Origin: a virus
Lineage: Duplodnaviria > Caudoviricetes
Reading direction: 5' to 3' (one strand)
DNA: 30,742 bases
Virus record (IMG/VR): IMGVR_UViG_3300030332_001053
Coordinates: 1 to 30,742 of that record
The notes beneath the pieces were generated by a model. That model saw nothing but the letters and a program-made list of their open reading frames with translations, searched no databases and had not been told where the DNA came from. Positions 4,796 to 22,054 of the stretch are shown here, one piece after another. Each line of letters starts with the position of its first letter. Within the stretch, counting starts at the first letter, position 1. The translations under genes and the position numbers were made by a program.

Positions 4796-7441
4796 ATGGC
4801 AAGAAAAAGACCAGGAACGATCACCAAGAGTAAACAAAAGGGTAAAGTAATTGTTTTTGGTGCAGTCGATCCTAAGACAGGTAGGCAAAAACAAACCCTG
4901 CGGACCGGTACGGCAGCTGAATTAGCCAAATTTGATCCGGTCAAACCTAAAAGTACTCGATTAAAAACACCGAGTACCGTTACTGCTAGTAAGAATCAGC
5001 CAGGTAAAGTTATAGAGTTTGGAGAGATAGATCCAGTTACAGGTCGGCAACAACAGACGATGAGAACTGGCACAATACCAAGCATTAGTAGCCCAACACC
5101 TAGTAAATCGGGATTCACGTTTTCGACTGATCCTACAACTGGAATAGTAATTGTTAATGACCCCGCAGGATACGCCCAAACACATCGGGGGAATCAAGGT
5201 ATATTTGTCAATAAGACTACTGGTAAATTAACGGATAGCCGAGGTAACCCAGTAGATCAATTTGGACGTCCAGTTAAACCACCGGAAGAAGAAAAAGAAC
5301 GTACATTAGAAGAACAAGCCGAAGATCTGTTGAGATTTCAACACGGTGAATTATCTGATTTAGGTAAGAAGTTTGGAGTAGATACAATACCTACTTCATT
5401 TGAAGATTCACTTAGAAGGCAACAAGAAGAACATCGAGATAGACTAACTTTTGAAGAGGAACAAGCAGAACGACAAAGAATTATAGATCAACAGAATTTA
5501 GATGCATTTAAGGAGAGTGCGGCAGGTTCGGAAGGACAAGCAATTGCATCATTATCACAAGGTCGTGAGGATGCATTTAGTGCCTCCAAGCCAATGGCTT
5601 TAAGCACATTTCAAGAAAATATTCAAAGACAACTTCGTATTCAAATTAGTAGAGTGCAGGGTGCGCAAGCTGCTAGACAACAAGCATTAAAGAATTTACG
5701 AATAGCACAACGAAATAATGATGAAGCAGCTATAGAACAATATTCGGCTAATTTAGCGGGTGCTGAACAGTCGATCCGTCAAGAAACATCACAGTTATTA
5801 CAAGATCAAGCAATGGCGAATGAAGAAGCAAGAAAGCTTGAAACAGCACAACGAGCAGAATTGAAAGGAACGCTAGAAATATTAGGGGCTTCTGGGATTG
5901 CGGACTTAAATCCAGAAGTATTAACAAAATTATTTGTTGATGCAGGATTTTCCCCTGCATTAGCTGATTCTATGCGTGTTGCACAAACTCAATTAGCAGA
6001 AGTTGAAAAAACAGGAGATATATTGGCTATACAGGAAAAACAGTTGACTATAAAAAATCTTGAATTAGAAATGGCTAATAAAAAATTAGGAGGTACAACT
6101 GCTATCCAAGAGTTTAATTATCTTCAAAGTTTAGTTGAAGCTGGTGCAAGCCTCCAAGAAATACAAGATTTTAAGATCCGAGCAGGATTCGTACAAAAGG
6201 CAAAGGATAATAAACGCAGCGTATTAGATAATGCTGTTACCTCAGGAGTAACCCTGAATGATACACGATTAACCCAAGGGGGTGCATCTAATGGTGCCGG
6301 GCGTATTGATCCGACTACATTAATAACTGATTTCTTATTCGGAAGCGGTGAACGTGGAGAACAAGTTGTAAATGCTGCTGGTGAATCGGTGGGGGTCATA
6401 AGTAGTCCTTATGGTGCAGATCATTCTAATATATCTGGTGAAGAGTCGCACAACGGCGTAGATATTAGTTTTAGCAATAATACTGCTGTTGCTTTATCAA
6501 GCGGTACAATAATTGAGAAGGGATTTTCTAGTAATGATTATGGTGCTTTTGTATGGCTGGAAGATCAGAGTGGCAATGTGATGCAGTATGGACATTTAAA
6601 CGTTGATGACGTTAATGGGCTTTCCGTTGGATCTTTTGTGAATTCGGGTGGCACTCTTGCAAGACAAGAAACGGATCCTGATAAATGGGGATCTGCTACG
6701 GGTGCTCATACAGATATACGATTTGCAGGGGTGCAGGATAATACCGCTGATACTATAGTTCAGGAATACGGGTATGGGATATTAGATGGAAGGATGAATA
6801 TTTCAAACGTAACAGGAGTTGACCAAGAAGAAACTGCTATCCTACGAGCTGCAGTCCAAACATTTGTTAATAAAAAATTAAAAGAAGGCTACAAATCAGA
6901 TTACCCAGTATTGACCGAAACACAATTAGAATTAGTAAATCAAATAAGCGATGACTTTAATTCAAATGAGGCAGTATCTGATATGATTGATATTGCTGGA
7001 GGTCTTGATGTTATTTCCGGGGTATTTGGTACAGAAGATAAATTAAAGGGTGCAACAGGTTTAGATGATATTACTGCAATTAACGCATTCCAAAGAATGG
7101 TTGATCCAGGTGCTACAGTACGAACGGACGATGTAACTTTGATAGAAGAAGCACTTCCGTGGTTAGCTAAAGTTAATCCGAAATTCAAATGGCATAAATT
7201 TAAGAAAGGAGATAAATTACCGATTGGAGTTAGGGAATCTCTCGTTCGTGTTGCTGATGAAATATATACCAGTAAAGCAACTAGATTCAACTCAACTATA
7301 GGTAACCAATTCAAACTTAGAGCAGATGCTGCTAATGTACCTTTTAATCTAATAGGTAGAGACTTCACCGTCTTTGAAGATAATCCATTTGCGGGAGTAG
7401 ATACATCTTCCCCAGAGGAAGATTTAAGTGATTTTGATTGA
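4796..7441 (+). CDS. DNA ejection / internal virion protein with coiled coil and M23 peptidase domain
   Basis: 881 aa with a Q/E-rich coiled coil, M23 motifs HNGVD, YGHLN and SATGAHTD, and a C-terminal AFQRMVDPGATVRTDD motif resembling phage DNA-transfer proteins. Confidence 0.7.
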   Translation: MARKRPGTITKSKQKGKVIVFGAVDPKTGRQKQTLRTGTAAELAKFDPVKPKSTRLKTPSTVTASKNQPGKVIEFGEIDPVTGRQQQTMRTGTIPSISSPTPSKSGFTFSTDPTTGIVIVNDPAGYAQTHRGNQGIFVNKTTGKLTDSRGNPVDQFGRPVKPPEEEKERTLEEQAEDLLRFQHGELSDLGKKFGVDTIPTSFEDSLRRQQEEHRDRLTFEEEQAERQRIIDQQNLDAFKESAAGSEGQAIASLSQGREDAFSASKPMALSTFQENIQRQLRIQISRVQGAQAARQQALKNLRIAQRNNDEAAIEQYSANLAGAEQSIRQETSQLLQDQAMANEEARKLETAQRAELKGTLEILGASGIADLNPEVLTKLFVDAGFSPALADSMRVAQTQLAEVEKTGDILAIQEKQLTIKNLELEMANKKLGGTTAIQEFNYLQSLVEAGASLQEIQDFKIRAGFVQKAKDNKRSVLDNAVTSGVTLNDTRLTQGGASNGAGRIDPTTLITDFLFGSGERGEQVVNAAGESVGVISSPYGADHSNISGEESHNGVDISFSNNTAVALSSGTIIEKGFSSNDYGAFVWLEDQSGNVMQYGHLNVDDVNGLSVGSFVNSGGTLARQETDPDKWGSATGAHTDIRFAGVQDNTADTIVQEYGYGILDGRMNISNVTGVDQEETAILRAAVQTFVNKKLKEGYKSDYPVLTETQLELVNQISDDFNSNEAVSDMIDIAGGLDVISGVFGTEDKLKGATGLDDITAINAFQRMVDPGATVRTDDVTLIEEALPWLAKVNPKFKWHKFKKGDKLPIGVRESLVRVADEIYTSKATRFNSTIGNQFKLRADAANVPFNLIGRDFTVFEDNPFAGVDTSSPEEDLSDFD

Positions 7442-12080: not shown

Positions 12081-12323
12081 TTATTCAAGTTTACATGGTA
12101 TTTCCAATGATACTTCTACCCCTACAGCTCGTCCCTCTCCATCGTAGTCTTCGATCTCGACTTCGATTCCGATAGCTTGCATTTCAGCTTTTACATCATC
12201 ACATAGGGCAGAACATTTTCCCCAATCCAGGTGGTGGGTTACGTCTAGGTCTCCGTCTAAATCGTAGCTCATACCACATGCAGCAGTTAAGGCTAATGCT
12301 GTCAAGCCTAGTTTTCCGTTCAT
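12081..12323 (-). CDS. Putative small lipoprotein
   Basis: MNGK-LGLTALALTAA-C: basic residue, hydrophobic core and lipobox-like TAAC, followed by an acidic mature region. Confidence 0.55.
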   Translation of the reverse strand: MNGKLGLTALALTAACGMSYDLDGDLDVTHHLDWGKCSALCDDVKAEMQAIGIEVEIEDYDGEGRAVGVEVSLEIPCKLE

Positions 12324-12332
12324 AGGATTAAG

Positions 12333-12683
12333 TTAAATTACATTTACATTATCTATCAAATGCTCCGTACCATTCCGATTCACCGCCACAAGCTCATACG
12401 TCCATCTATCATCCTGAATCCAAATAGGGGAATGGTCTAAGGCACACTCTACGATCAAGGCTCGGTTCTCATGTACCATTTCTTTTACTCTGTCTTTCCA
12501 TGATTCATGACCTGTAACAATAGGCTCTGCTCTTCTAGTGTACACAGTCCGAACCTCCCCGCCCACAATAGCTCTAATCGTTGCAGTTGATACCTCGACA
12601 GAGAAGCTTCTACGTTGCTCTCTCCACTCCCTTGTATGGGAGTTGGCGTTGTTAGGTCTGGCTACATATATAACAGTTGTCAA
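12333..12683 (-). CDS. Hypothetical protein
   Basis: 116-aa ORF with TTG start, same strand as its neighbours. Confidence 0.55.
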   Translation of the reverse strand: MTTVIYVARPNNANSHTREWREQRRSFSVEVSTATIRAIVGGEVRTVYTRRAEPIVTGHESWKDRVKEMVHENRALIVECALDHSPIWIQDDRWTYELVAVNRNGTEHLIDNVNVI

Positions 12684-12862
12684 TTACTACGCTCATGCAA
12701 GGTTTGCACTCTGGCGGCTCTACCTTCTCATCCGTTTTCTTCATCACCTGATTCACCTCTGTATTTATCACGTCTTGAGCGTCTGTTAATCGTACAAGGT
12801 CTATTGCTGCCGCCATAGCAACAATCCCTAGTCCGATTCTTACAGAACGTTCAAGTATCATG
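12652..12862 (-). CDS. Hypothetical membrane-anchored, Cys-containing protein (start uncertain; track gives 12924)
   Basis: MILERSVRIGLGIVAMAAAIDL hydrophobic N-terminus and C-terminal CKPC/CYIC. Confidence 0.45.
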
Positions 12863-12880
12863 AATAGTATAATTATACCA

Positions 12881-13309
12881 TTATTTAGGGGTGTTTGTCG
12901 ATTCGAGAAGGTCTGGATTCTCATGTATGTTTCCTATTACTGAAGCGTCTGTATCAATCATTTGCCCAGTTATGTACTCGTTGTCGTCTTTATCCGCTAT
13001 GTTTTCCACGTAAAATCCATGAACAAAGTAATCGTACTCATGCCCGTTAGCCCCTAGATTGGTTGTCCCGAACTTCACTACGCCTTGCATGAATATATCA
13101 GTCGATTGCACTCCCTTCCTGCTATAATAAATAGCAACTATATCCCCCTCGTATATCTCTGCTCCGTTCTTGTCCTTTAAACTTGTGTATTGATCCTTCA
13201 CTTCATAGTCAGTAGTAAAACGCACGGTCATAATTTCTTCTAAGGTATAAAATTTAAAGAACCATCCATCCTCATCCTGTTTGCCGAATCTAAATTTTAT
13301 TTCTCTCAT
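12881..13309 (-). CDS. YopX family protein
   Basis: MREIKFR...QYTSLKDKNGAEIYEGDIV...VIGNIHENPDLL signature. Confidence 0.92.
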   Translation of the reverse strand: MREIKFRFGKQDEDGWFFKFYTLEEIMTVRFTTDYEVKDQYTSLKDKNGAEIYEGDIVAIYYSRKGVQSTDIFMQGVVKFGTTNLGANGHEYDYFVHGFYVENIADKDDNEYITGQMIDTDASVIGNIHENPDLLESTNTPK

Positions 13310-13536
13310 ATTTTATTTTGTTTAAATCTTTGTACTAAAGCATTCAATTCATTCCGCTCAACTTGTCGAAACAACTTAGCGATCTGACCTTGCTTATGCC
13401 TAATATGTCCTTGTATCCCTGCTAACTCTTGTAGTCCTTTGTAGCTCTCAGGGTTTATTCCATTACGCTGTTGACCTAGCTTGTCTACTTCATCAGAGAG
13501 TATCTGGATCTTTTCTAGTTTTTGATTACGGCTCAT
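13306..13536 (-). CDS. Hypothetical coiled-coil protein
   Basis: 76 aa with ATGA overlaps on both sides. Confidence 0.7.
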   Translation of the reverse strand: MSRNQKLEKIQILSDEVDKLGQQRNGINPESYKGLQELAGIQGHIRHKQGQIAKLFRQVERNELNALVQRFKQNKI

Positions 13537-13655
13537 ATCAGCTTGGCTAATACCTCAATTCCAAACCACAGAAACGCGTGTAGTAATGCAAGCATTCCAA
13601 TCAAAATACCAAGTATCAATATAATTAGCGCAGTATAGTTATAAATTTTTTTCAT
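13533..13655 (-). CDS. Small single-pass membrane protein (40 aa)
   Basis: MKKIYNYTALIILILGILIGMLALLHAFLWFGIEVLAKLI; its stop overlaps the next ATG (ATGA). Not in the ORF track. Confidence 0.65.
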   Translation of the reverse strand: MKKIYNYTALIILILGILIGMLALLHAFLWFGIEVLAKLI

Positions 13656-13656
13656 G

Positions 13657-13830
13657 TTATTCTCTTAAAGCACCTAATTTTACTGCAATACCAAATACTA
13701 AATCATATACTGCTTTAGCTTCCGGATCTTTTTGATCTTGAATAGAATCTAAAAACTCTGTTACAAGATCAAACATAAATTCCCTTTCTAATCGATTGAA
13801 TTTTATTTTCTTCCTATCTTTATTACTCAT
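13657..13830 (-). CDS. Hypothetical protein (57 aa)
   Basis: MSNKDRKKIKFNRLEREFMFDLVTEFLDS...; fills the operon gap exactly. Not in the ORF track. Confidence 0.65.
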   Translation of the reverse strand: MSNKDRKKIKFNRLEREFMFDLVTEFLDSIQDQKDPEAKAVYDLVFGIAVKLGALRE

Positions 13831-14023
13831 AAGCTACTTCGACAACTTCTTTAGTCACTTCAATAGTGATATTGATATCGCCGGATAATATGTATTTTCT
13901 AACTCTTGGCAATGTTTTATCATTCTCGTCTTTCATGATCGGAGCTAACCATTGTTTTACAACGATAACTTCTTGTCCCGATATTTTGTGCTTTATAGTC
14001 TGCCCGACTTCGTACTTCCACAT
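13823..14023 (-). CDS. Hypothetical protein (SH3-like beta pattern)
   Basis: KYEVGQTIKHKISGQEVIVV pattern; operon packing. Confidence 0.65.
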   Translation of the reverse strand: MWKYEVGQTIKHKISGQEVIVVKQWLAPIMKDENDKTLPRVRKYILSGDINITIEVTKEVVEVAYE

Positions 14024-14037
14024 AATAGTGAATTAAA

Positions 14038-14340
14038 TTAATATTTTTCTTTTACTGTTTGTAACCAGATTTTAGATCGATCGTTGCCAGTCCATTTTTT
14101 AGCATCAGCTAAGGTAGGAAAGCGACCACCATAACCCCTCAGCCATACTCGTTTGAAATCGTCGAAGCTTTCCTGTGTAGTATTATACCATTTTAATTGT
14201 CTCTCGCCATTGGGCCACTCCATTATTCCAAAACAATTATTCTTACTCACTCCAGATCCTTTGGTGCAATTGGCGGTTTCGGCAACCGAGACTGCGTACG
14301 CCAATCGTTCAAGGTCTGCTGGTCCTGCTTCAGATACCAC
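14038..14340 (-). CDS. Lysozyme-like (GH73 glucosaminidase-like) domain, probably expressed as a -1 frameshift fusion with the upstream gene
   Basis: VAET (putative catalytic Glu), NNCFGI and YNTTQESFDDF motifs. The frame is open back to 14475 with no ATG before the GTG at 14340. Confidence 0.7.
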   Translation of the reverse strand: MVSEAGPADLERLAYAVSVAETANCTKGSGVSKNNCFGIMEWPNGERQLKWYNTTQESFDDFKRVWLRGYGGRFPTLADAKKWTGNDRSKIWLQTVKEKY

Positions 14341-16518: not shown

Positions 16519-16899
16519 TTAATTCTTGGTTAATGATTTAAAATATTCCTCCCATAGGGCGTCCTCGTTGGCCGCAACGTAATCCATTAGTAAATCAGTG
16601 TAGCCGTCCTCATGTACCAGTCCTTCCCATTCGGGGTCAGGTATTTCCTTATCCTTATTCAGCCGGGTCCATTCCCAGAGCAGATCCATATTGTCCTTCT
16701 TCCATTGATCGCTGCCTTCTGGTGCGCTGTACCGCATAGCTCGAACGACTGTTAGTATCTCGGTAATCTCAAACGCTGCTACCGAATCCTTGGCCGTATA
16801 GTGGCGCTGAGTTACAAGCGCTTTTCTAATGATATCTAGTTCGTTGTTTGTTAGCTCTCGAGCTATTGCTGGCGGTCGTACTTCTGTTGCTTTATTCAT
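16519..16899 (-). CDS. Hypothetical protein
   Basis: 126-aa ORF packed in the operon. Confidence 0.7.
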   Translation of the reverse strand: MNKATEVRPPAIARELTNNELDIIRKALVTQRHYTAKDSVAAFEITEILTVVRAMRYSAPEGSDQWKKDNMDLLWEWTRLNKDKEIPDPEWEGLVHEDGYTDLLMDYVAANEDALWEEYFKSLTKN

Positions 16900-17089
16900 T
16901 ATTAGAGTGGTTAAGTGATTCTTCGTATCCGTAGAACCATGTGTCAGTATTCTGGTGCGAAGTACAAAACTTCTCGGCAGCCTCGTACGACATGTGCGAC
17001 TTGATTAGCTCCCGAGGGCTACCTATCTTAGATATTTTAAACAGGTCGTACGGAAGATCTTTGAATGTTTTTGCTTTAGACATATTCAT
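16892..17089 (-). CDS. Hypothetical protein (start 17089 or 17083)
   Basis: 65-aa ORF overlapping both neighbours. Confidence 0.65.
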   Translation of the reverse strand: MNMSKAKTFKDLPYDLFKISKIGSPRELIKSHMSYEAAEKFCTSHQNTDTWFYGYEESLNHSNNE

Positions 17090-17243
17090 GATGGTTAACT
17101 AATAAATTAGACGGATCGTAGTTTAAACAATCCTCATTTGAACAAGCGAGATACTCGAATTGTACGAGTTCATAATCTCCTTGAAAGGTATCCTCGGTGA
17201 GTACCTTTATTGGTTGCCTACATAGGCTGCATAGCATATTCAT
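17076..17243 (-). CDS. Small zinc-ribbon-like protein (55 aa), first gene of a leftward operon
   Basis: MNMLCSLCRQPIK...YLACSNEDCLNY (CxxC ... CxxxxC), directly after a promoter. Not in the ORF track. Confidence 0.65.
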   Translation of the reverse strand: MNMLCSLCRQPIKVLTEDTFQGDYELVQFEYLACSNEDCLNYDPSNLLVNHHEYV

Positions 17244-17272
17244 GTTGCAATGTTAAATGATATACTGAATAT

Positions 17273-17301
17273 ATCATACTATAAGTTAAGGTTAAAGTAA
17301 A
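17273..17301 (-). promoter_or_regulatory. Leftward sigma70 promoter
   Basis: TTTACT (17301-17296), 17 nt, TATGAT (17278-17273). Confidence 0.6.
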
Positions 17302-17306
17302 CCCTT

Positions 17307-17543
17307 TTATTTAATATTTAATTCCATAACCTTATATCCTAAATCTGTAATCATTAAAGAACGATTGACTGAGGAATATCCCACTAGTTTAAGATTACGT
17401 AATGTCTTAAGTCTAAGATTGACAGATGTTTTACTAATGTTTAGTTTTTCTGCAATTTCAACTTGTTTGGGGCTATTCTCGTATGTATTTCGAAAATCCT
17501 CGATAAACTGTAATAGCTCTAACTGATTGCTACTTAATTTCAT
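17307..17543 (-). CDS. LexA-type winged-helix DNA-binding protein (no peptidase domain)
   Basis: LSSNQLELLQFI...SPKQVEIAEKLNISKTSVNLRLKTL matches the LexA N-terminal domain pattern; 78 aa only. Confidence 0.8.
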   Translation of the reverse strand: MKLSSNQLELLQFIEDFRNTYENSPKQVEIAEKLNISKTSVNLRLKTLRNLKLVGYSSVNRSLMITDLGYKVMELNIK

Positions 17544-17935
17544 AATTGTGTTGTTAATATGTTAGCCTTTTGTAATAAATCTAAACCAGATTGATCCCGA
17601 TATAATTCACTATAATAAACCTCTTTGATACCACTTTGAATAATGAGTTTAGCACATTCAAAACAGGGGGAGTAAGAACAATATAAGACTGCGTTATCAC
17701 ACGATGATCCATTCTTAGCACACTTGAGAATAGCATTACTTTCCGCATGGAGCACTTCTGGTTTAGTTACACCATCTATCTCACAAACATTACTCATGCC
17801 ACTGGGGCAGCCATTATATCCCATGGAGATGATATTCTTATTCTTTACAAGTATTGCGCCAACCTTTGCACGTTCGCAATAAGACTCTTGGGCGACGCGT
17901 TCGGCTATGTCGATATATAAATTATGTTTACTCAT
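17540..17935 (-). CDS. dCMP deaminase family protein
   Basis: KVGA, GYNG, HAE and SPCFEC zinc-deaminase motifs. Probable start is MSKHN at 17935, overlapping the TS stop. Confidence 0.92.
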   Translation of the reverse strand: MSKHNLYIDIAERVAQESYCERAKVGAILVKNKNIISMGYNGCPSGMSNVCEIDGVTKPEVLHAESNAILKCAKNGSSCDNAVLYCSYSPCFECAKLIIQSGIKEVYYSELYRDQSGLDLLQKANILTTQL

Positions 17936-18743
17936 AGATTTTCGCTTTAATATGTGGTAAAGGATTATAATCAAGGAATTCTATTTTGTTAGGATCATAT
18001 TCTTCTAATGTTGGAAGATCTCCCAATGGGATTGTGGTGGGAATATATCGGGTTAAAGAATCTACCCGGTCTAAATATTCTTCAACCTGGTTTATATGCC
18101 CCTCGTAAATATGAGCGCTGCCAATGTTAATAATTACGTCCCCTATCGTTCTGTGCTTTGTTTGTTGGGAATTGATTGTGTTAACGACCAAAAACAAAAA
18201 CATTGCATAAAAGCACATATCATATGGCAACCCGATAAATGTATCGGCGCTTCTTTGTGATACAACTAAATCTATAGTATTTTCGTTAACTAATACTTGG
18301 AAAGTATAGAAGCAAGGAGGCAGGGCCATTTTGTCTAGATCGGCAGGATTCCATAAACTTATAATGTGTCTTCGACTATAAAGATTGAGTTTAAATCCTT
18401 TTATAAGTTCTGCCACTTGGTCTACCCCATTAAAGTCTCTGAATTGTTTACCATAAATCGGGCCTAAATCACCATTCTCATCGGCCCAGTTATCCCAAAT
18501 TTTACTACCGTTATCATTTAAGTACTTAACGTTAGTATCCCCATTCAACATCCACTTTAATTCATGTAAGAAATTTTTAGGAAATATCTTTTTACCAGAT
18601 AGCATGGGGAACCCATCCGTAGGATTTAATATAAGTTGTCGCCCGTGTAAATTCAATGTTGGGCCATTACGGGATGTTTGCTTTTCCCCTTTCGTGAGAA
18701 TGTCTTTGAGCAATTTGGTATAGTCTATCTCAAATTGTTGCAT
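17928..18743 (-). CDS. thyA: Thymidylate synthase (ThyA) homolog with dCMP-type specificity residues
   Basis: HELKW, LGPIYGKQFR, SRR, LPPC, QRSAD and AHIY motifs are present, but PCF replaces PCH and GLPYD replaces GLPFN. Confidence 0.9.
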   Translation of the reverse strand: MQQFEIDYTKLLKDILTKGEKQTSRNGPTLNLHGRQLILNPTDGFPMLSGKKIFPKNFLHELKWMLNGDTNVKYLNDNGSKIWDNWADENGDLGPIYGKQFRDFNGVDQVAELIKGFKLNLYSRRHIISLWNPADLDKMALPPCFYTFQVLVNENTIDLVVSQRSADTFIGLPYDMCFYAMFLFLVVNTINSQQTKHRTIGDVIINIGSAHIYEGHINQVEEYLDRVDSLTRYIPTTIPLGDLPTLEEYDPNKIEFLDYNPLPHIKAKIYE

Positions 18744-18755
18744 TGTTTTTAATTA

Positions 18756-19199
18756 TTAAATATTATTAGTTGATCCAAACGCTCCTTCACCCCGTTCTGT
18801 CTTATCCCAATGTATATCTTTGTCAGCTATCGGCACAAGCACCACGTCGACGTATACGACTGGTATTAAAATAAACTGTACCAACTTCATTCCTCGAGTA
18901 ATTTCAACTGTAGAGTCGCCTATGTTGGCCACATGAAGATGTACTTCACCTTGGTAGTCTTCATCCACTACACATGCCCCTACTTGCAATCCATGATTTA
19001 AGGCTATCCCTGATTTATTGAATGCACATAACATATGGCCTTCAGGAACTCTAACCTTAATACCACTTGGGATATTGATACTTTCATTAGGGCCTAAGAT
19101 TCTACTTTCAAAGTCTTCCGGTACATAGAAATCTAATCCAGCTGATTTACTTGTTCCCCTTGTCGGTGTTCTTACTGTTTTTATTTTTTGTATTAGCAT
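18756..19199 (-). CDS. dut: Trimeric dUTPase
   Basis: Five motifs: AGLD, KSG, VVDEDYQGE, LVQF and RGEGAFGST. Confidence 0.92.
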   Translation of the reverse strand: MLIQKIKTVRTPTRGTSKSAGLDFYVPEDFESRILGPNESINIPSGIKVRVPEGHMLCAFNKSGIALNHGLQVGACVVDEDYQGEVHLHVANIGDSTVEITRGMKLVQFILIPVVYVDVVLVPIADKDIHWDKTERGEGAFGSTNNI

Positions 19200-19464
19200 G
19201 ACCTTGATCTGTTAAATAATTATTTAGTCCACCTATATAAGCTACTGCATCAAGTAAATTATCTTCTTTGTGTGCATATGCCTCCCTAGATAGTTTCAAA
19301 GCTATAAGAGCTTTAAACATCTCCACAGCTGTTAGATTTAACCCAGTCATACCGTTGAAAACAATCGCAGCTCTTTCCATATTTTCAGAGATTGGTCCAT
19401 ATTGTCGTTCTTTCTCCTCACTCCTATGGTTTATAATTTGGTCTGCCCTTTTTAATATATTCAT
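19147..19464 (-). CDS. DUF6378-like all-helical protein (possible nucleotide pyrophosphohydrolase)
   Basis: ILKRADQII...RQYG...KLSR...EDNLLDAVAY pattern; probable start at ATG 19464. Confidence 0.7.
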   Translation of the reverse strand: MNILKRADQIINHRSEEKERQYGPISENMERAAIVFNGMTGLNLTAVEMFKALIALKLSREAYAHKEDNLLDAVAYIGGLNNYLTDQGHANTKNKNSKNTDKGNK

Positions 19465-19466
19465 AA

Positions 19467-19760
19467 TTAACAAAGTCTAATATTTTCCCCTCTAGTATAA
19501 ATTGCCTCAGCCTGTAATTTACGTTGTTCGGACGAAGGTGGTAAGATTTCACACTTAATACGAAGTAATGTAGCTGCTTTAGCCATATACATAATCTTCT
19601 TTAGGTCATTGTCGATTGGCCGTTGGAGTAAATACTCCCATGTGGCTATCAACATTCCAGTATTGTCTCCGGCAAGTTTAGGATCTGCCTTCACGATATT
19701 AGCGACGATTTTTTCACGTCGATCCATATCATCAAAGGACTTTTTCCATTTGATCCGCAT
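19467..19760 (-). CDS. Hypothetical protein, first gene of the nucleotide-metabolism operon
   Basis: 97-aa ORF directly after a promoter. Confidence 0.65.
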   Translation of the reverse strand: MRIKWKKSFDDMDRREKIVANIVKADPKLAGDNTGMLIATWEYLLQRPIDNDLKKIMYMAKAATLLRIKCEILPPSSEQRKLQAEAIYTRGENIRLC

Positions 19761-19786
19761 GATGCATGTTGTTAAATTATGAATAA

Positions 19787-19815
19787 AATATAAATTAAGT
19801 TAATTCAAAAGTAAA
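19787..19815 (-). promoter_or_regulatory. Leftward sigma70 promoter
   Basis: TTTACT (19815-19810), 17 nt, TATATT (19792-19787). Confidence 0.55.
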
Positions 19816-19835
19816 GCCTTAAGTCTGAAAAGGGG

Positions 19836-19863
19836 TTTACAAAACCTATGATCGGTGTATATT
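19836..19863 (+). promoter_or_regulatory. Rightward promoter for the candidate sRNA
   Basis: TTTACA (19836-19841), 16 nt, TATATT (19858-19863). Confidence 0.45.
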
Positions 19864-19869
19864 GTTTCT

Positions 19870-19987
19870 GCATGTTGCAATGTATTCTATCTTGCCGATC
19901 CCAAGGGATTATAGAGGTAGAATTTGACTCTCGGTAGGACGAAAGGGCTCAGGCTTGATCTATCCTACCAATGGGAGTTTTTAATTT
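19870..19987 (+). ncRNA. Candidate small regulatory RNA (5' seed, two hairpins, U-tract)
   Basis: Unpaired 19870-19883; stem 19884-19893/19914-19923; stems 19926-19932/19973-19979 and 19933-19939/19963-19969; T-rich tail; no substantial ORF. Confidence 0.5.
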
Positions 19988-20012
19988 ACTTTTTCGATAA
20001 TGTATGTATAAT
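19985..20012 (+). promoter_or_regulatory. Promoter for the replication genes
   Basis: TTTACT (19985-19990), 16 nt, TATAAT (20007-20012). Confidence 0.5.
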
Positions 20013-20027
20013 ATACTCATAAACTAA

Positions 20028-20130
20028 TCGTACACGTTATATTTATATTTATATTCGACAGTTTCAACCTCTTCATTCGCAAGACGTGTGCGAGCTTATT
20101 GTGCGTGGAGGGGTTGAAGTTGTTTAATAT
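20028..20130 (+). promoter_or_regulatory. Structured 5' leader of the initiator gene (long hairpin plus possible pseudoknot)
   Basis: Stem 20051-20076/20105-20130 with G-U pairs; 20028-20038 is complementary to loop segment 20083-20093. Confidence 0.55.
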
Positions 20131-20138
20131 ATTTTAAT

Positions 20139-20909
20139 ATGTTTACGACGATATTTCACCCATTACGGAAGATGTACCGCATGTCGTGCAACGAATATAT
20201 GGTTTTAGATTCCGTTCGAACTTTATCCGCTAATGCTGATTATGATTTTTGGTGTGTGATGTCGATACAGCGAATTGCCGACAACTTAGATCTCCATTAC
20301 AACACTGTATCGCTCGCAATGAAAAAATTAGAAGAGGTTGGACTATTAGTCCGGCGTAGGACAAATCCACAGGACACAGCATGTCGAGTTACGAATGAAT
20401 GGCACCAATGGTTCGCCCAAGGAACAGGTGACTTAATTATGGCTCTTAAAAATAAAAACGGTGAAGTAACGGGGTATATACCAAGGAAAACTATGAAACA
20501 AATTAATAAATCTGGAAACCCCCACAAAAAATGTGGCACCCCCACTAAAAATGTGGTAGACCCCCACAAAAAACGTGGGGGGGGTCCCACAAAAAACGTG
20601 GGTAATATATATAAAGATATAGATATCAATAAAATATATACCCTCTATAAGGAAAAAATTCAGAAGAATGCACGATTAACTGACGCAGCTAAAAAGAAAA
20701 TTAATACACGTTTAAAGGAATTCTCCGTTCAAGAAATAAATATTGCTATTGAAAACTTTGCTGCTGACTCATGGTGGATGGAAAAGAATTCCAACAAAGG
20801 AATGAAATGGTTCTTTGATACAGACGATAGGATTGAACAGTTTATAAATCTTAAACCTAAAATTATTAAAAAATCTAAACCAATTAAAAAACTAATCTCA
20901 ACCCTATGA
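20139..20909 (+). CDS. Phage replication initiator (lambda O-like replisome organiser)
   Basis: N-terminal wHTH (SIQRIADNLDLHYNTVSLAMKKLEEVGLL), repeat-coded linker, helical C-terminal domain; ATGA-coupled to the helicase. Confidence 0.85.
   Translation: MFTTIFHPLRKMYRMSCNEYMVLDSVRTLSANADYDFWCVMSIQRIADNLDLHYNTVSLAMKKLEEVGLLVRRRTNPQDTACRVTNEWHQWFAQGTGDLIMALKNKNGEVTGYIPRKTMKQINKSGNPHKKCGTPTKNVVDPHKKRGGGPTKNVGNIYKDIDINKIYTLYKEKIQKNARLTDAAKKKINTRLKEFSVQEINIAIENFAADSWWMEKNSNKGMKWFFDTDDRIEQFINLKPKIIKKSKPIKKLISTL
20521..20640. repeat. Four 16-bp iterons plus AT-rich tract: probable replication origin
   Basis: CCCACWAAAAAYGTGG at 20521, 20541, 20563 and 20586, each with an internal CCAC/GTGG dyad, followed by AT-rich 20603-20640. 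Confidence 0.85.
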
Positions 20910-22054
20910 ATCTCGAAAGAAAACTTTTACAGTATTATTTTAATAATCCTAACAAGTTATTAGCTTGTCAATTAGAGGATAATGATTTCTCTGAATTAGG
21001 ATTCGTTTATGTCGCTTTAAAGAAACATGCAGAAACTCACGGAGAGATAGATATCGAATTATTTACTATAGATAACATTAACGCTTATCTAGCTTTAGAT
21101 TTACATGAATATTATGGACCAATGAGCGATAAAGCTGAAGTAGAGATTATAAACAAACTACGAGAGGCAAGATTAGACATTATCGTAAAACAAACCGATA
21201 CAGTTAAAGAATTAAATACATTAGATGAATTAAGGAAACCACTACAAGTCGAAAAGGCTGTATCGTTTAAAGAAGATTTACAAGATTATTGGAAGGAATT
21301 TGCTGAAATTGCTACGAGAAGAGAAGCAACTGGAACTATTGGTTTACCTACTGGGATCAGTATGTTCAATGAATATCCATTAATTCCTAATACATTGTTA
21401 GTGATTGGAGCACGAACTTCTGTTGGAAAGACAGCTATGGCACTGAATATGGCGTATGGATTAGCGAAAGAAGGTGGAAAAGTTTTATATATGACAGCTG
21501 AAATGGATTATAATTCCGTTCTTTCAAGACTTTATGCTTTAGCAACAAATCATCCAGTTACAGGGTTTATACACGCACTCAATGATGATTTCGTATCAGA
21601 TGCACATAATGCTCTTCAAACAATAGATGGAGATATACACATAAAATATTGTGGAGGATGGAAATGGTCTAAAATCAAAAACTACATCATAGCAAGTAAG
21701 GATTACGATATGGTGGTATTAGATCATTTACATTATTTACCGGTAGAAGATAACGAGGTTCAATTTCTTACGCAAGTTATCAATGATGCTAAAATGATCG
21801 CAGGACAGAAACGAAACACGTTCGTGATGCTTGCTCAAGTAAACCGTGGAGTTGGAACTGCTGAACAAGAGCCGGAAGTGTATCATTTACGGGGATCAGG
21901 AGGAATTGAACAAGGGGCCGACATGGTTGCCATGCTTCACAGACCGGATCGAACGGAATCAGGAGGAATATTTACATTAGCTAAGAATCGTGGAGGAGCA
22001 TCCGGAGATAGATATGAAATACGCTTAGATTTAAAAACATTGAAAATAAAGTGA
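20906..22054 (+). CDS. dnaB: DnaB-like replicative helicase
   Basis: Walker A GARTSVGKT, TAEM, Walker B VVLDHLH, LAQVNR, LRGSGGIEQGAD and AKNRGG. Confidence 0.93.
   Translation: MNLERKLLQYYFNNPNKLLACQLEDNDFSELGFVYVALKKHAETHGEIDIELFTIDNINAYLALDLHEYYGPMSDKAEVEIINKLREARLDIIVKQTDTVKELNTLDELRKPLQVEKAVSFKEDLQDYWKEFAEIATRREATGTIGLPTGISMFNEYPLIPNTLLVIGARTSVGKTAMALNMAYGLAKEGGKVLYMTAEMDYNSVLSRLYALATNHPVTGFIHALNDDFVSDAHNALQTIDGDIHIKYCGGWKWSKIKNYIIASKDYDMVVLDHLHYLPVEDNEVQFLTQVINDAKMIAGQKRNTFVMLAQVNRGVGTAEQEPEVYHLRGSGGIEQGADMVAMLHRPDRTESGGIFTLAKNRGGASGDRYEIRLDLKTLKIK

Follow-up and report, generated by a model that had tools for sequence, protein, structure and literature searches.

A ThyA-like thymidylate synthase homolog, a predicted dCMP C5-methylase, in a four-gene cassette of a tailed phage

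Introduction

In phage T4, dCTP is removed by the gp56 dCTPase, dCMP is modified by gp42, which has Asp at the position of E. coli ThyA Asn177, and the product is phosphorylated by the gp1 kinase. The T4 dCTPase is an all-alpha protein, and the T4 dNMP kinase is a P-loop enzyme. Closest to the locus described here are phages Xp12 (NC_073033, gp60-gp57) and PaMx74 (NC_028809, gp53-gp50), in which a pyrophosphatase-type (PRA-PH) gene with a small helical domain lies upstream of a thymidylate synthase (TS) homolog with Asp177 and a deaminase lies directly downstream, followed in Xp12 by DHFR. In Xp12 DNA, C is replaced to 100% by 5-methylcytosine (5mC), and of 218 type II restriction enzymes, 196 are blocked by this DNA (PMC7653180). 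Phage dCMP C5-methylases are an enzyme class already in print, represented by the Xp12 enzyme and by others mined through the same residue. Specifically, Yang 2021 (PMC8670742) identified positions 177 and 147 as the top two residues separating the TS of modified from those of unmodified phage contigs, and the Asn-to-Asp change at 177 switches TS preference to dCMP (PMC8670742; bioRxiv 2024.12.05.627091). Yang 2024 (bioRxiv 2024.12.05.627091) mined Asp-type TS beside deaminases; five of the seven tested enzymes made 5-methyl-dC (5mdC) and two did not. The authors proposed that the deaminase supplies T, and described the preference of such deaminases for 5mC nucleotides (mSCD) as a polyphyletic trait, for which the accessible text gives no sequence marker. 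As for the product, Asp or Glu at 143 goes with hydroxymethyl products and Asn at 169 with hydroxy products (PMC13326640).

Here, we describe a cassette in which DUF6378, dUTPase-like, TS and deaminase genes are combined. Among the tested enzymes identifiable in the literature, none comes from the ThyA-like lineage of its TS homolog. A first-pass annotation had proposed that this homolog may be a natural dCMP C5-methyl- or hydroxymethyltransferase. That core idea is already published for other enzymes, and what is new is the context, namely the cassette itself and the predicted roles of two neighbours of the TS gene. In the following, loci with Asp or Asn at TS position 177 are called Asp and Asn loci, respectively.

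Results

The window, i.e., the whole 30,742-nucleotide stretch analysed, is part of the genome of a small marine tailed phage; its genes include those for terminase, major capsid protein, amidase, NinG, exonuclease, an O-like initiator and DnaB. Records run over the window end, so that the genome extends beyond this stretch. Four minus-strand genes overlap or abut, in the order DUF6378 (19464-19147), dUTPase-fold protein (19199-18756), TS homolog and deaminase (17935-17540). The 49 window proteins scanned, from a genome that continues past the window, included no DNA polymerase, DHFR or recognisable kinase, and no glycosyl- or carbamoyltransferase; the two kinds of transferase were also missing from the 35 neighbour families that recur in Asp loci. 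Searches of the window for tRNAs and notable repeats found none. The cassette genes were absent from 18 loci of terminase relatives, most of which had little upstream DNA and few genes in common with the window. The leaders of the cassette genes (window 17300-19800) were AT-rich and had no Shine-Dalgarno motif; this, together with the Bacteroidota labels of several GTDB matches, hints at a Bacteroidota host. Elsewhere in the window, an 881-aa gene of the structural block (4796-7441) has an internal M23 peptidase domain, and the region 12300-14100 varies between strains, where assemblies break or skip and base changes cluster at 12807-12823.

The TS homolog (17928..18743, minus strand, 271 aa) matched PF00303 in a Pfam profile search with an E value of 3e-70. 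The residues that mark the TS superfamily were all present in the alignment: the catalytic Cys144 (E. coli C146), Glu61 (E58), the phosphate-binding Arg124/Arg125 (R126/R127) and Arg164 (R166), and His211/Tyr213 (H207/Y209). The first-pass annotation had aligned both specificity motifs to E. coli ThyA without gaps, and our alignment reproduced this, placing Asp175 (GAT, 18219..18221, minus strand) at the substrate-selecting N177 position and Phe145 (TTC, 18311-18309) at the H147 position. The protein resembles E. coli ThyA in fold, in length and in 9 of the 12 C5-proximal residues that PMC13326640 lists, and differs from it in N177D, H147F and C168A, the last being common in ordinary ThyA, as well as in having cytosine-modification genes as neighbours. 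It lacks the Asn177 of canonical ThyA, yet passes the TIGR03284 thymidylate synthase cut-off (206.7 vs 108.35 bits), which confirms the earlier warning that pipelines would mislabel the gene thyA.

We then examined whether the Asp codon is real, as a read error at this codon had been named in the first-pass annotation as a possible refutation. Contigs of three further marine runs, none of them marked as the source, had identical letters at the codon with zero alternatives (X6, 17679-18914; X8, 18124-18778; X9, 18093-18256), while the fourth run compared, X10, had no cover there. In addition, four possible-source runs contained no variants at 16594-21087, and a read error was ruled out by these two sets of runs together. 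Asp at 177 is also not a matter of chance, because 27 of the best 120 homologs carry it and 93 carry Asn; the residues at 147/177 were His/Asn in 93, His/Asp in 21, Tyr/Asp in three and Phe/Asp in three. The last residue of the protein is Glu where a hydrophobic one is expected, a minor deviation common to two homologs (P0002 and P0003). A sequencing error at the Asp codon, or decay of a former thyA, is nevertheless highly improbable, since the codon recurs in the further runs and Asp is kept throughout a diverse clade together with every catalytic residue.

The Phe at position 147 did not bear out the role of a second specificity switch given to it earlier. Replacement of the corresponding L. 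casei His199 in engineered enzymes reportedly favours dCMP further, although our literature search found no paper reporting this result. His was kept in 21 of the 27 close Asp homologs, Xp12 has Pro at this position, and Phe occurred in only three of the 120 closest homologs, every one Asp-type. Of 150 cluster representatives taken, 138 were parsed, five of them with other residues at 177; His147 was absent from 17 of the 26 Asp-type and 6 of the 107 Asn-type representatives, indicating that position 147 relaxes together with Asp177 and is not a required switch. A required role for Phe145 was ruled out, as most close Asp homologs retain His. Note that 26 of the 27 close Asp sequences were taken into alignment A1, with P0033 left out.

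A phylogeny of Asp-type homologs, one of the checks suggested earlier, placed the TS homolog within an Asp-dominated ThyA-like clade. The FastTree tree contained 197 sequences, with both diagnostic columns masked and hydroxymethylase-type sequences left out, and the clade had 38 tips (37 Asp and one Asn) with a support of 0.94, the Phe/Asp trio forming a small sub-branch of it. The single Asn177 sequence, P0112, is nested beside the Asp sequence P0008, an apparent reversion that makes a useful natural control. Asp also occurred at scattered other places among the ThyA-like enzymes of this tree, and we draw no order of events because the deep nodes are weak. With ordinary ThyA, the TS homolog shares about 40-44% identity; with the Xp12 TS, which does not pass TIGR03284, it shares 22%. 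By sequence, it is assigned to a ThyA-like Asp lineage separate from that of Xp12. Membership of the Xp12/PaMx74 clade, whose signature Asn143/Pro147 it lacks, was ruled out by identity and tree position.

Asp-type TS was found in 27 of 84 viral loci versus 0 of 80 loci of a general metagenome collection, and a motif scan of GTDB returned 48 stretches, mostly in metagenome-assembled genomes. No isolated phage in the database search had a TS above 42% identity to the TS homolog. The TS itself was present on 10 contigs, the longest of which has 67,780 bases; the sources of the matching sequences were marine metagenomes, and there were no RNA datasets among the holders listed.

The residues that bear on the product were then compared with described enzymes. 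Within the stretch Leu141-Phe145 (18309..18323, minus strand), which includes the catalytic Cys144, Leu141 corresponds to L143, where T4-type dCMP hydroxymethylases have Asp or Glu. Asp167 (18243..18245, minus strand) corresponds to D169, where RB69-type 5-hydroxy-dCMP synthases have Asn. Under the rules of PMC13326640, a methyl product is predicted from these two residues, Leu141 favouring methyl over hydroxymethyl and Asp167 favouring methyl over 5-hydroxy. The enzyme thus resembles the Xp12-type dCMP C5-methylases in having Asp at 177 with neither Asp/Glu at 143 nor Asn at 169, and also in its context of an adjacent deaminase and pyrophosphatase-type gene. Preference for dCMP is well supported by the Asp rule and this gene context, and dCMP methylation instead of thymidine making is likely because the Asp swap is known from cytosine-modifying phages. 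Of the first-pass proposal, the dCMP preference stands, with methyl favoured over hydroxymethyl transfer; natural methylases of this kind are already known.

We next characterized the neighbouring genes, scanning loci in all frames and assigning domains by profiles; note that related phages in these co-occurrence counts are not independent. The protein encoded directly upstream of TS (18756..19199, minus strand, 147 aa, PF00692) has the trimeric dUTPase fold. All five motifs of homotrimeric dUTPases (human 2HQU, E. coli 1DUD) were recognisable, including the motif III Asp and Tyr. However, compared with human dUTPase, Lys replaces Arg in motif II, and Cys76, His87 and His89 replace Gly, Gly and Val in the base-selecting motif III hairpin (18933..18980, minus strand). 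The protein also stays under the TIGR00576 cut-off (94.5 vs 102.55), so that it departs from canonical trimeric dUTPases in motif II, hairpin and family score alike. Its relatives numbered 1615 proteins, and in the best 120, on which the motifs were checked, the changes were kept: Lys in 118, Cys in 117, His for Gly in 113 and His for Val in 109. The hairpin of dUTPase selects uracil through main-chain atoms (PMC12524310), and for this reason the side-chain changes suggest, without proving, a new base.

The genomic company of this Lys-type subfamily was also examined. Among 80 viral loci fetched with the dUTPase-like protein alone, 75 had an Asp TS within 6 kb, none had an Asn TS and five had no TS. 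Of the 75, 52 belong to one near-identical gut lineage and the remainder to about five more TS types. In Asn loci, seven of seven dUTPases were Arg-type, and one Arg-type enzyme adjoins an Asp TS (L307). Furthermore, the 36 non-redundant ThyA-like Asp loci (window included) comprised 29 with MazG, six with the Lys-type dUTPase fold and none with both, although this pyrophosphatase slot is not exclusive everywhere, since the gut lineage also carries an all-alpha pyrophosphatase. From the altered motifs and the co-occurrence, we consider it somewhat more probable than otherwise that the dUTPase-like protein is a dCTPase. No description of a Lys-type dUTPase subfamily was found in the literature listings and abstract openings searched, which lay outside subscription journals. 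In Croceibacter phage P2559Y, a Lys-type dUTPase fold (L399:9001-9965) is followed by a 174-aa gene that looks like a degenerate TS by eye; this gene had no Pfam TS match, and the 18 kb retrieved for the phage contained no gene annotated as TS.

The first gene of the cassette encodes a DUF6378 protein (19147..19464, minus strand, 105 aa, PF19905 E value 2e-11) with four to five helices in a model of pLDDT 84, and occupies the slot of the dNMP kinase in related cassettes. In 116 non-redundant Asp loci of at least 7 kb, a small helical domain (DUF6378, C14 or Nmad1-like) without a P-loop kinase occurred in 74, a P-loop kinase without such a domain in 28, the two together in one and neither in 13; the absences are soft, because the kinase profiles come from six seeds of our own and the loci are partial. 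DUF6378 was present in only one of 51 non-redundant Asn loci. Among Xp12-like phages with a PRA-PH gene before TS, the second domain was a P-loop kinase in 17 and Nmad1-like in 17, never both; seven further PRA-PH matches had neither, one of which (L296) was fused to DUF6378. In such phages, the gene before TS annotated as HAD or Cof hydrolase is PRA-PH fused to a P-loop kinase, Nmad1-like or DUF6378 domain (for example, L401:6210-6983, which is Xp12 gp60, L176:6545-7588 and L296:6932-7630). The Xp12 genome had no match to the six-seed kinase profiles. Fusions also connect DUF6378 with cytosine modification: among 39 longer DUF6378 proteins, the fusion partner was a TS, always Asp-type, in 12 and the Lys-type dUTPase fold in 16. 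On the other hand, one DUF6378 protein (P0276) has a P-loop domain as its fusion partner, which weakens the idea of simple replacement. In loci that lack DUF6378, the neighbour of Asp TS and MazG is a helical family of 85 aa without a name, C14 (L039:2208-2462 and 25 similar), and all of its 26 matches were in Asp loci. Dhillonviruses and mycobacteriophages commonly encode distant DUF6378 proteins, for which no link to the cassette was seen.

Structure and profile comparisons gave little for DUF6378. Foldseek against the PDB returned nothing at E 0.001, a PDB sequence search gave no match, and the best VIA-align Z of 5.9 was within noise, as were four MazG/PRA-PH-like chains among the top 12 (Z 5.0-5.2, rmsd 2.8-4.5, 64-75 aligned). 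A viral structure library returned mostly DUF6378 or unnamed proteins, and the ESM Atlas DUF6378 only. The DUF6378 profile was not significant against the DUF3310, C14, Nmad1 and MazG sets, and the sole scoring comparison was that of the Xp12 C-terminal domain with one Nmad1 protein (E value 1.5e-5, probability 57%). T7 gp1.7 is a non-P-loop kinase, and a 5-methyl-dCMP kinase activity is reportedly induced by Xp12. Based on slot and co-occurrence, DUF6378 could be a kinase for modified dCMP, a role to which we give a little less than an even chance; a second pyrophosphatase is the main alternative. No function for DUF6378 was found in the literature listings and abstract openings searched, likewise outside subscription journals.

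The last gene encodes a zinc enzyme of the dCMP deaminase family (17540..17935, minus strand, 131 aa, PF00383 E value 7e-25), whose ATG overlaps the TS stop by 8 bases, the longest frame opening at 17974. Its best solved relative was 4P9C, a canonical dCMP deaminase structure (E value 1e-35). Among 80 viral loci fetched with the deaminase, 12 had a TS, all Asp-type, and 68 had none. Searched separately, each of the three neighbours of the TS gene thus points to cytosine modification. The three closest viral relatives adjoin Asp-type TS, and the closest relatives adjoin TS of the hydroxymethylase type (Asp143/Thr147).

We also examined restriction-type palindromes in the window. Observed/expected ratios of C-containing palindromes were 0.92 for 4-mers and 0.74 for 6-mers, compared with 0.98 and 0.99 in Markov simulations. 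The corresponding ratios were 0.90 and 0.76 in 50 Asn loci, 0.83 and 0.77 in 21 ThyA-like Asp loci, 0.99 and 0.87 in 33 Xp12-like loci, and 0.98 and 0.83 in 28 other Asp loci, groups among which host and GC content vary. Unlike the window, the Xp12-like group therefore showed no 4-mer avoidance. This result points against full 5mC replacement or long-standing full shielding, and would agree with a substitution that is partial, with a cassette gained recently or with a role confined to thymidine supply. The lack of a DNA polymerase among the scanned window proteins likewise speaks against full replacement. Across the window (1-30742), CGCG was strongly depleted (10 sites vs about 31 expected), as were CTTA/TAAG and several 6-mer palindromes, which may reflect host restriction systems.

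Discussion

Residues, gene order and co-occurrence at this locus were observed directly, and the enzymatic steps are inferred from them. We regard it as fairly probable that the cassette, with a dCMP C5-methyltransferase as its core, turns host dCTP into 5-methyl-dCTP for phage DNA, part of the pool being deaminated to T. In this mechanism, the dUTPase-fold protein would hydrolyse dCTP to dCMP, which the TS homolog would methylate using Cys144 and methylene-tetrahydrofolate, with Asp175 accepting the 4-amino group. DUF6378 or a host kinase would phosphorylate 5-methyl-dCMP, and host NDP kinase would complete the triphosphate. The host polymerase, loaded by the phage initiator and DnaB, would then insert 5mC and many type II restriction enzymes would be blocked, while the deaminase is predicted to convert part of the 5-methyl-dC pool to thymidine nucleotide. 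Only part of the C may be replaced. The cassette most likely works like the Xp12 system, although outside its sequence clade: PRA-PH stands there in place of the dUTPase fold and an Nmad1-like domain in place of DUF6378, Xp12 and PaMx74 have their own DNA polymerase and DHFR, and the two TS proteins share Asp177 and the GLPYD motif. The logic of dCTP removal, dCMP modification and phosphorylation is also that of T4, from which the TS differs in having Leu at 143. The TS and mSCD pairs described by Yang and colleagues (bioRxiv 2024.12.05.627091; PMC8670742) share the diagnostic residue, the TS-deaminase adjacency and an origin in viromes, marine and sewage, whereas the accessible main text of the 2024 paper mentions no dUTPase and the present cassette has a dUTPase fold.

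Several other readings deserve weight. The enzyme could methylate dCMP merely to feed T synthesis, in which dCTP would yield dCMP, dCMP a 5-methyl-dC nucleotide and the latter, by deamination, T, leaving little or no 5mC in DNA. Such a role is in line with the continued avoidance of palindromes, the AT-richness of ThyA-like Asp loci (median GC 0.32), the kinship of the deaminase to a canonical dCMP deaminase and the lack of a polymerase in the window, and Xp12 does make T from 5mdC nucleotides (bioRxiv 2024.12.05.627091). However, the deaminase lies near TS in only 3 of the 36 ThyA-like Asp loci, suggesting that it is accessory, whereas 35 of these loci have the pyrophosphatase slot occupied and 34 that of the small helical domain; the same neighbours also occur in hydroxymethylase-type clusters with glycosyl- or carbamoyltransferases, and the palindrome avoidance may predate the cassette. 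We consider a thymidine-only role rather unlikely for these reasons.

Less likely again is that the enzyme methylates dUMP, or both substrates, within a classical trio of dUTPase, TS and dCMP deaminase. The identity to ordinary ThyA, the TIGR03284 score and the standard dTMP pathway labels of the neighbours would agree with this, as would the two tested Asp enzymes that gave no 5mdC (bioRxiv 2024.12.05.627091), the scattered Asp among ThyA-like enzymes and the Asn sequence inside the Asp clade. Against it stand the shift to dCMP caused by Asn-to-Asp (PMC8670742), the non-canonical dUTPase-like neighbour, which never lay beside an Asn TS while dUTPases of Asn loci were all Arg-type, and the presence of DUF6378 in only one of the 51 non-redundant Asn loci. 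A product such as 5-hydroxymethyl-dCMP, or another C5 product, decorated further by genes beyond the window, is slightly less probable still. Hydroxymethylase-type TS (Asp143/Thr147) adjoin the nearest relatives of the deaminase and many relatives of the dUTPase-like protein, the L143 rule is a correlation, Xp12 having Asn at this position, and the genome continues outside the window; but Leu141 and Asp167 are methyl-type residues, and the transferases expected for decoration were found neither among the window proteins nor among the recurrent neighbours of Asp loci.

If the 5-methyl-dCTP cassette reading is correct, the TS homolog adds a ThyA-like lineage to a known enzyme class and shows that standard pipelines will call such a protein thymidylate synthase, a mislabelling by which phage dTMP genes are overcounted and modified genomes go unnoticed. 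If the predictions for its neighbours hold as well, the viral 'dUTPase' subfamily, which is widespread, would hydrolyse dCTP and could serve to mark phage DNA with modified cytosine, DUF6378 would gain a function, and a compact 5mC module with a further deaminase candidate would serve methylation tools. A bolder proposal, which we put forward only tentatively, is that a portable 2-kb cassette lets small phages reliant on the host polymerase build 5mC DNA, with a dUTPase fold switched to dCTP and DUF6378 acting as a 90-residue helical non-P-loop kinase for modified dCMP, the Nmad1-like domain of Xp12-like phages being their 5-methyl-dCMP kinase.

Related gene sets occur in other phages. A large group of phage contigs of about 36 kb, L319-L374 (e.g., L326:2242-6435), combines a Lys-type dUTPase fold and a divergent Asp TS (Arg143/Ser147) with DUF6378 and an all-alpha pyrophosphatase, and also holds a gene that resembles asparagine synthase by eye; this group possibly represents an undescribed cytosine modification. 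The isolated Bacteroides phage BF503P1 (L400:5493-11522) has carbamoyltransferase-like and kinase-like genes and two TS-like genes, one of them an Asp TS, together with a Lys-type dUTPase fold, and is a cultured model for the dCTPase prediction.
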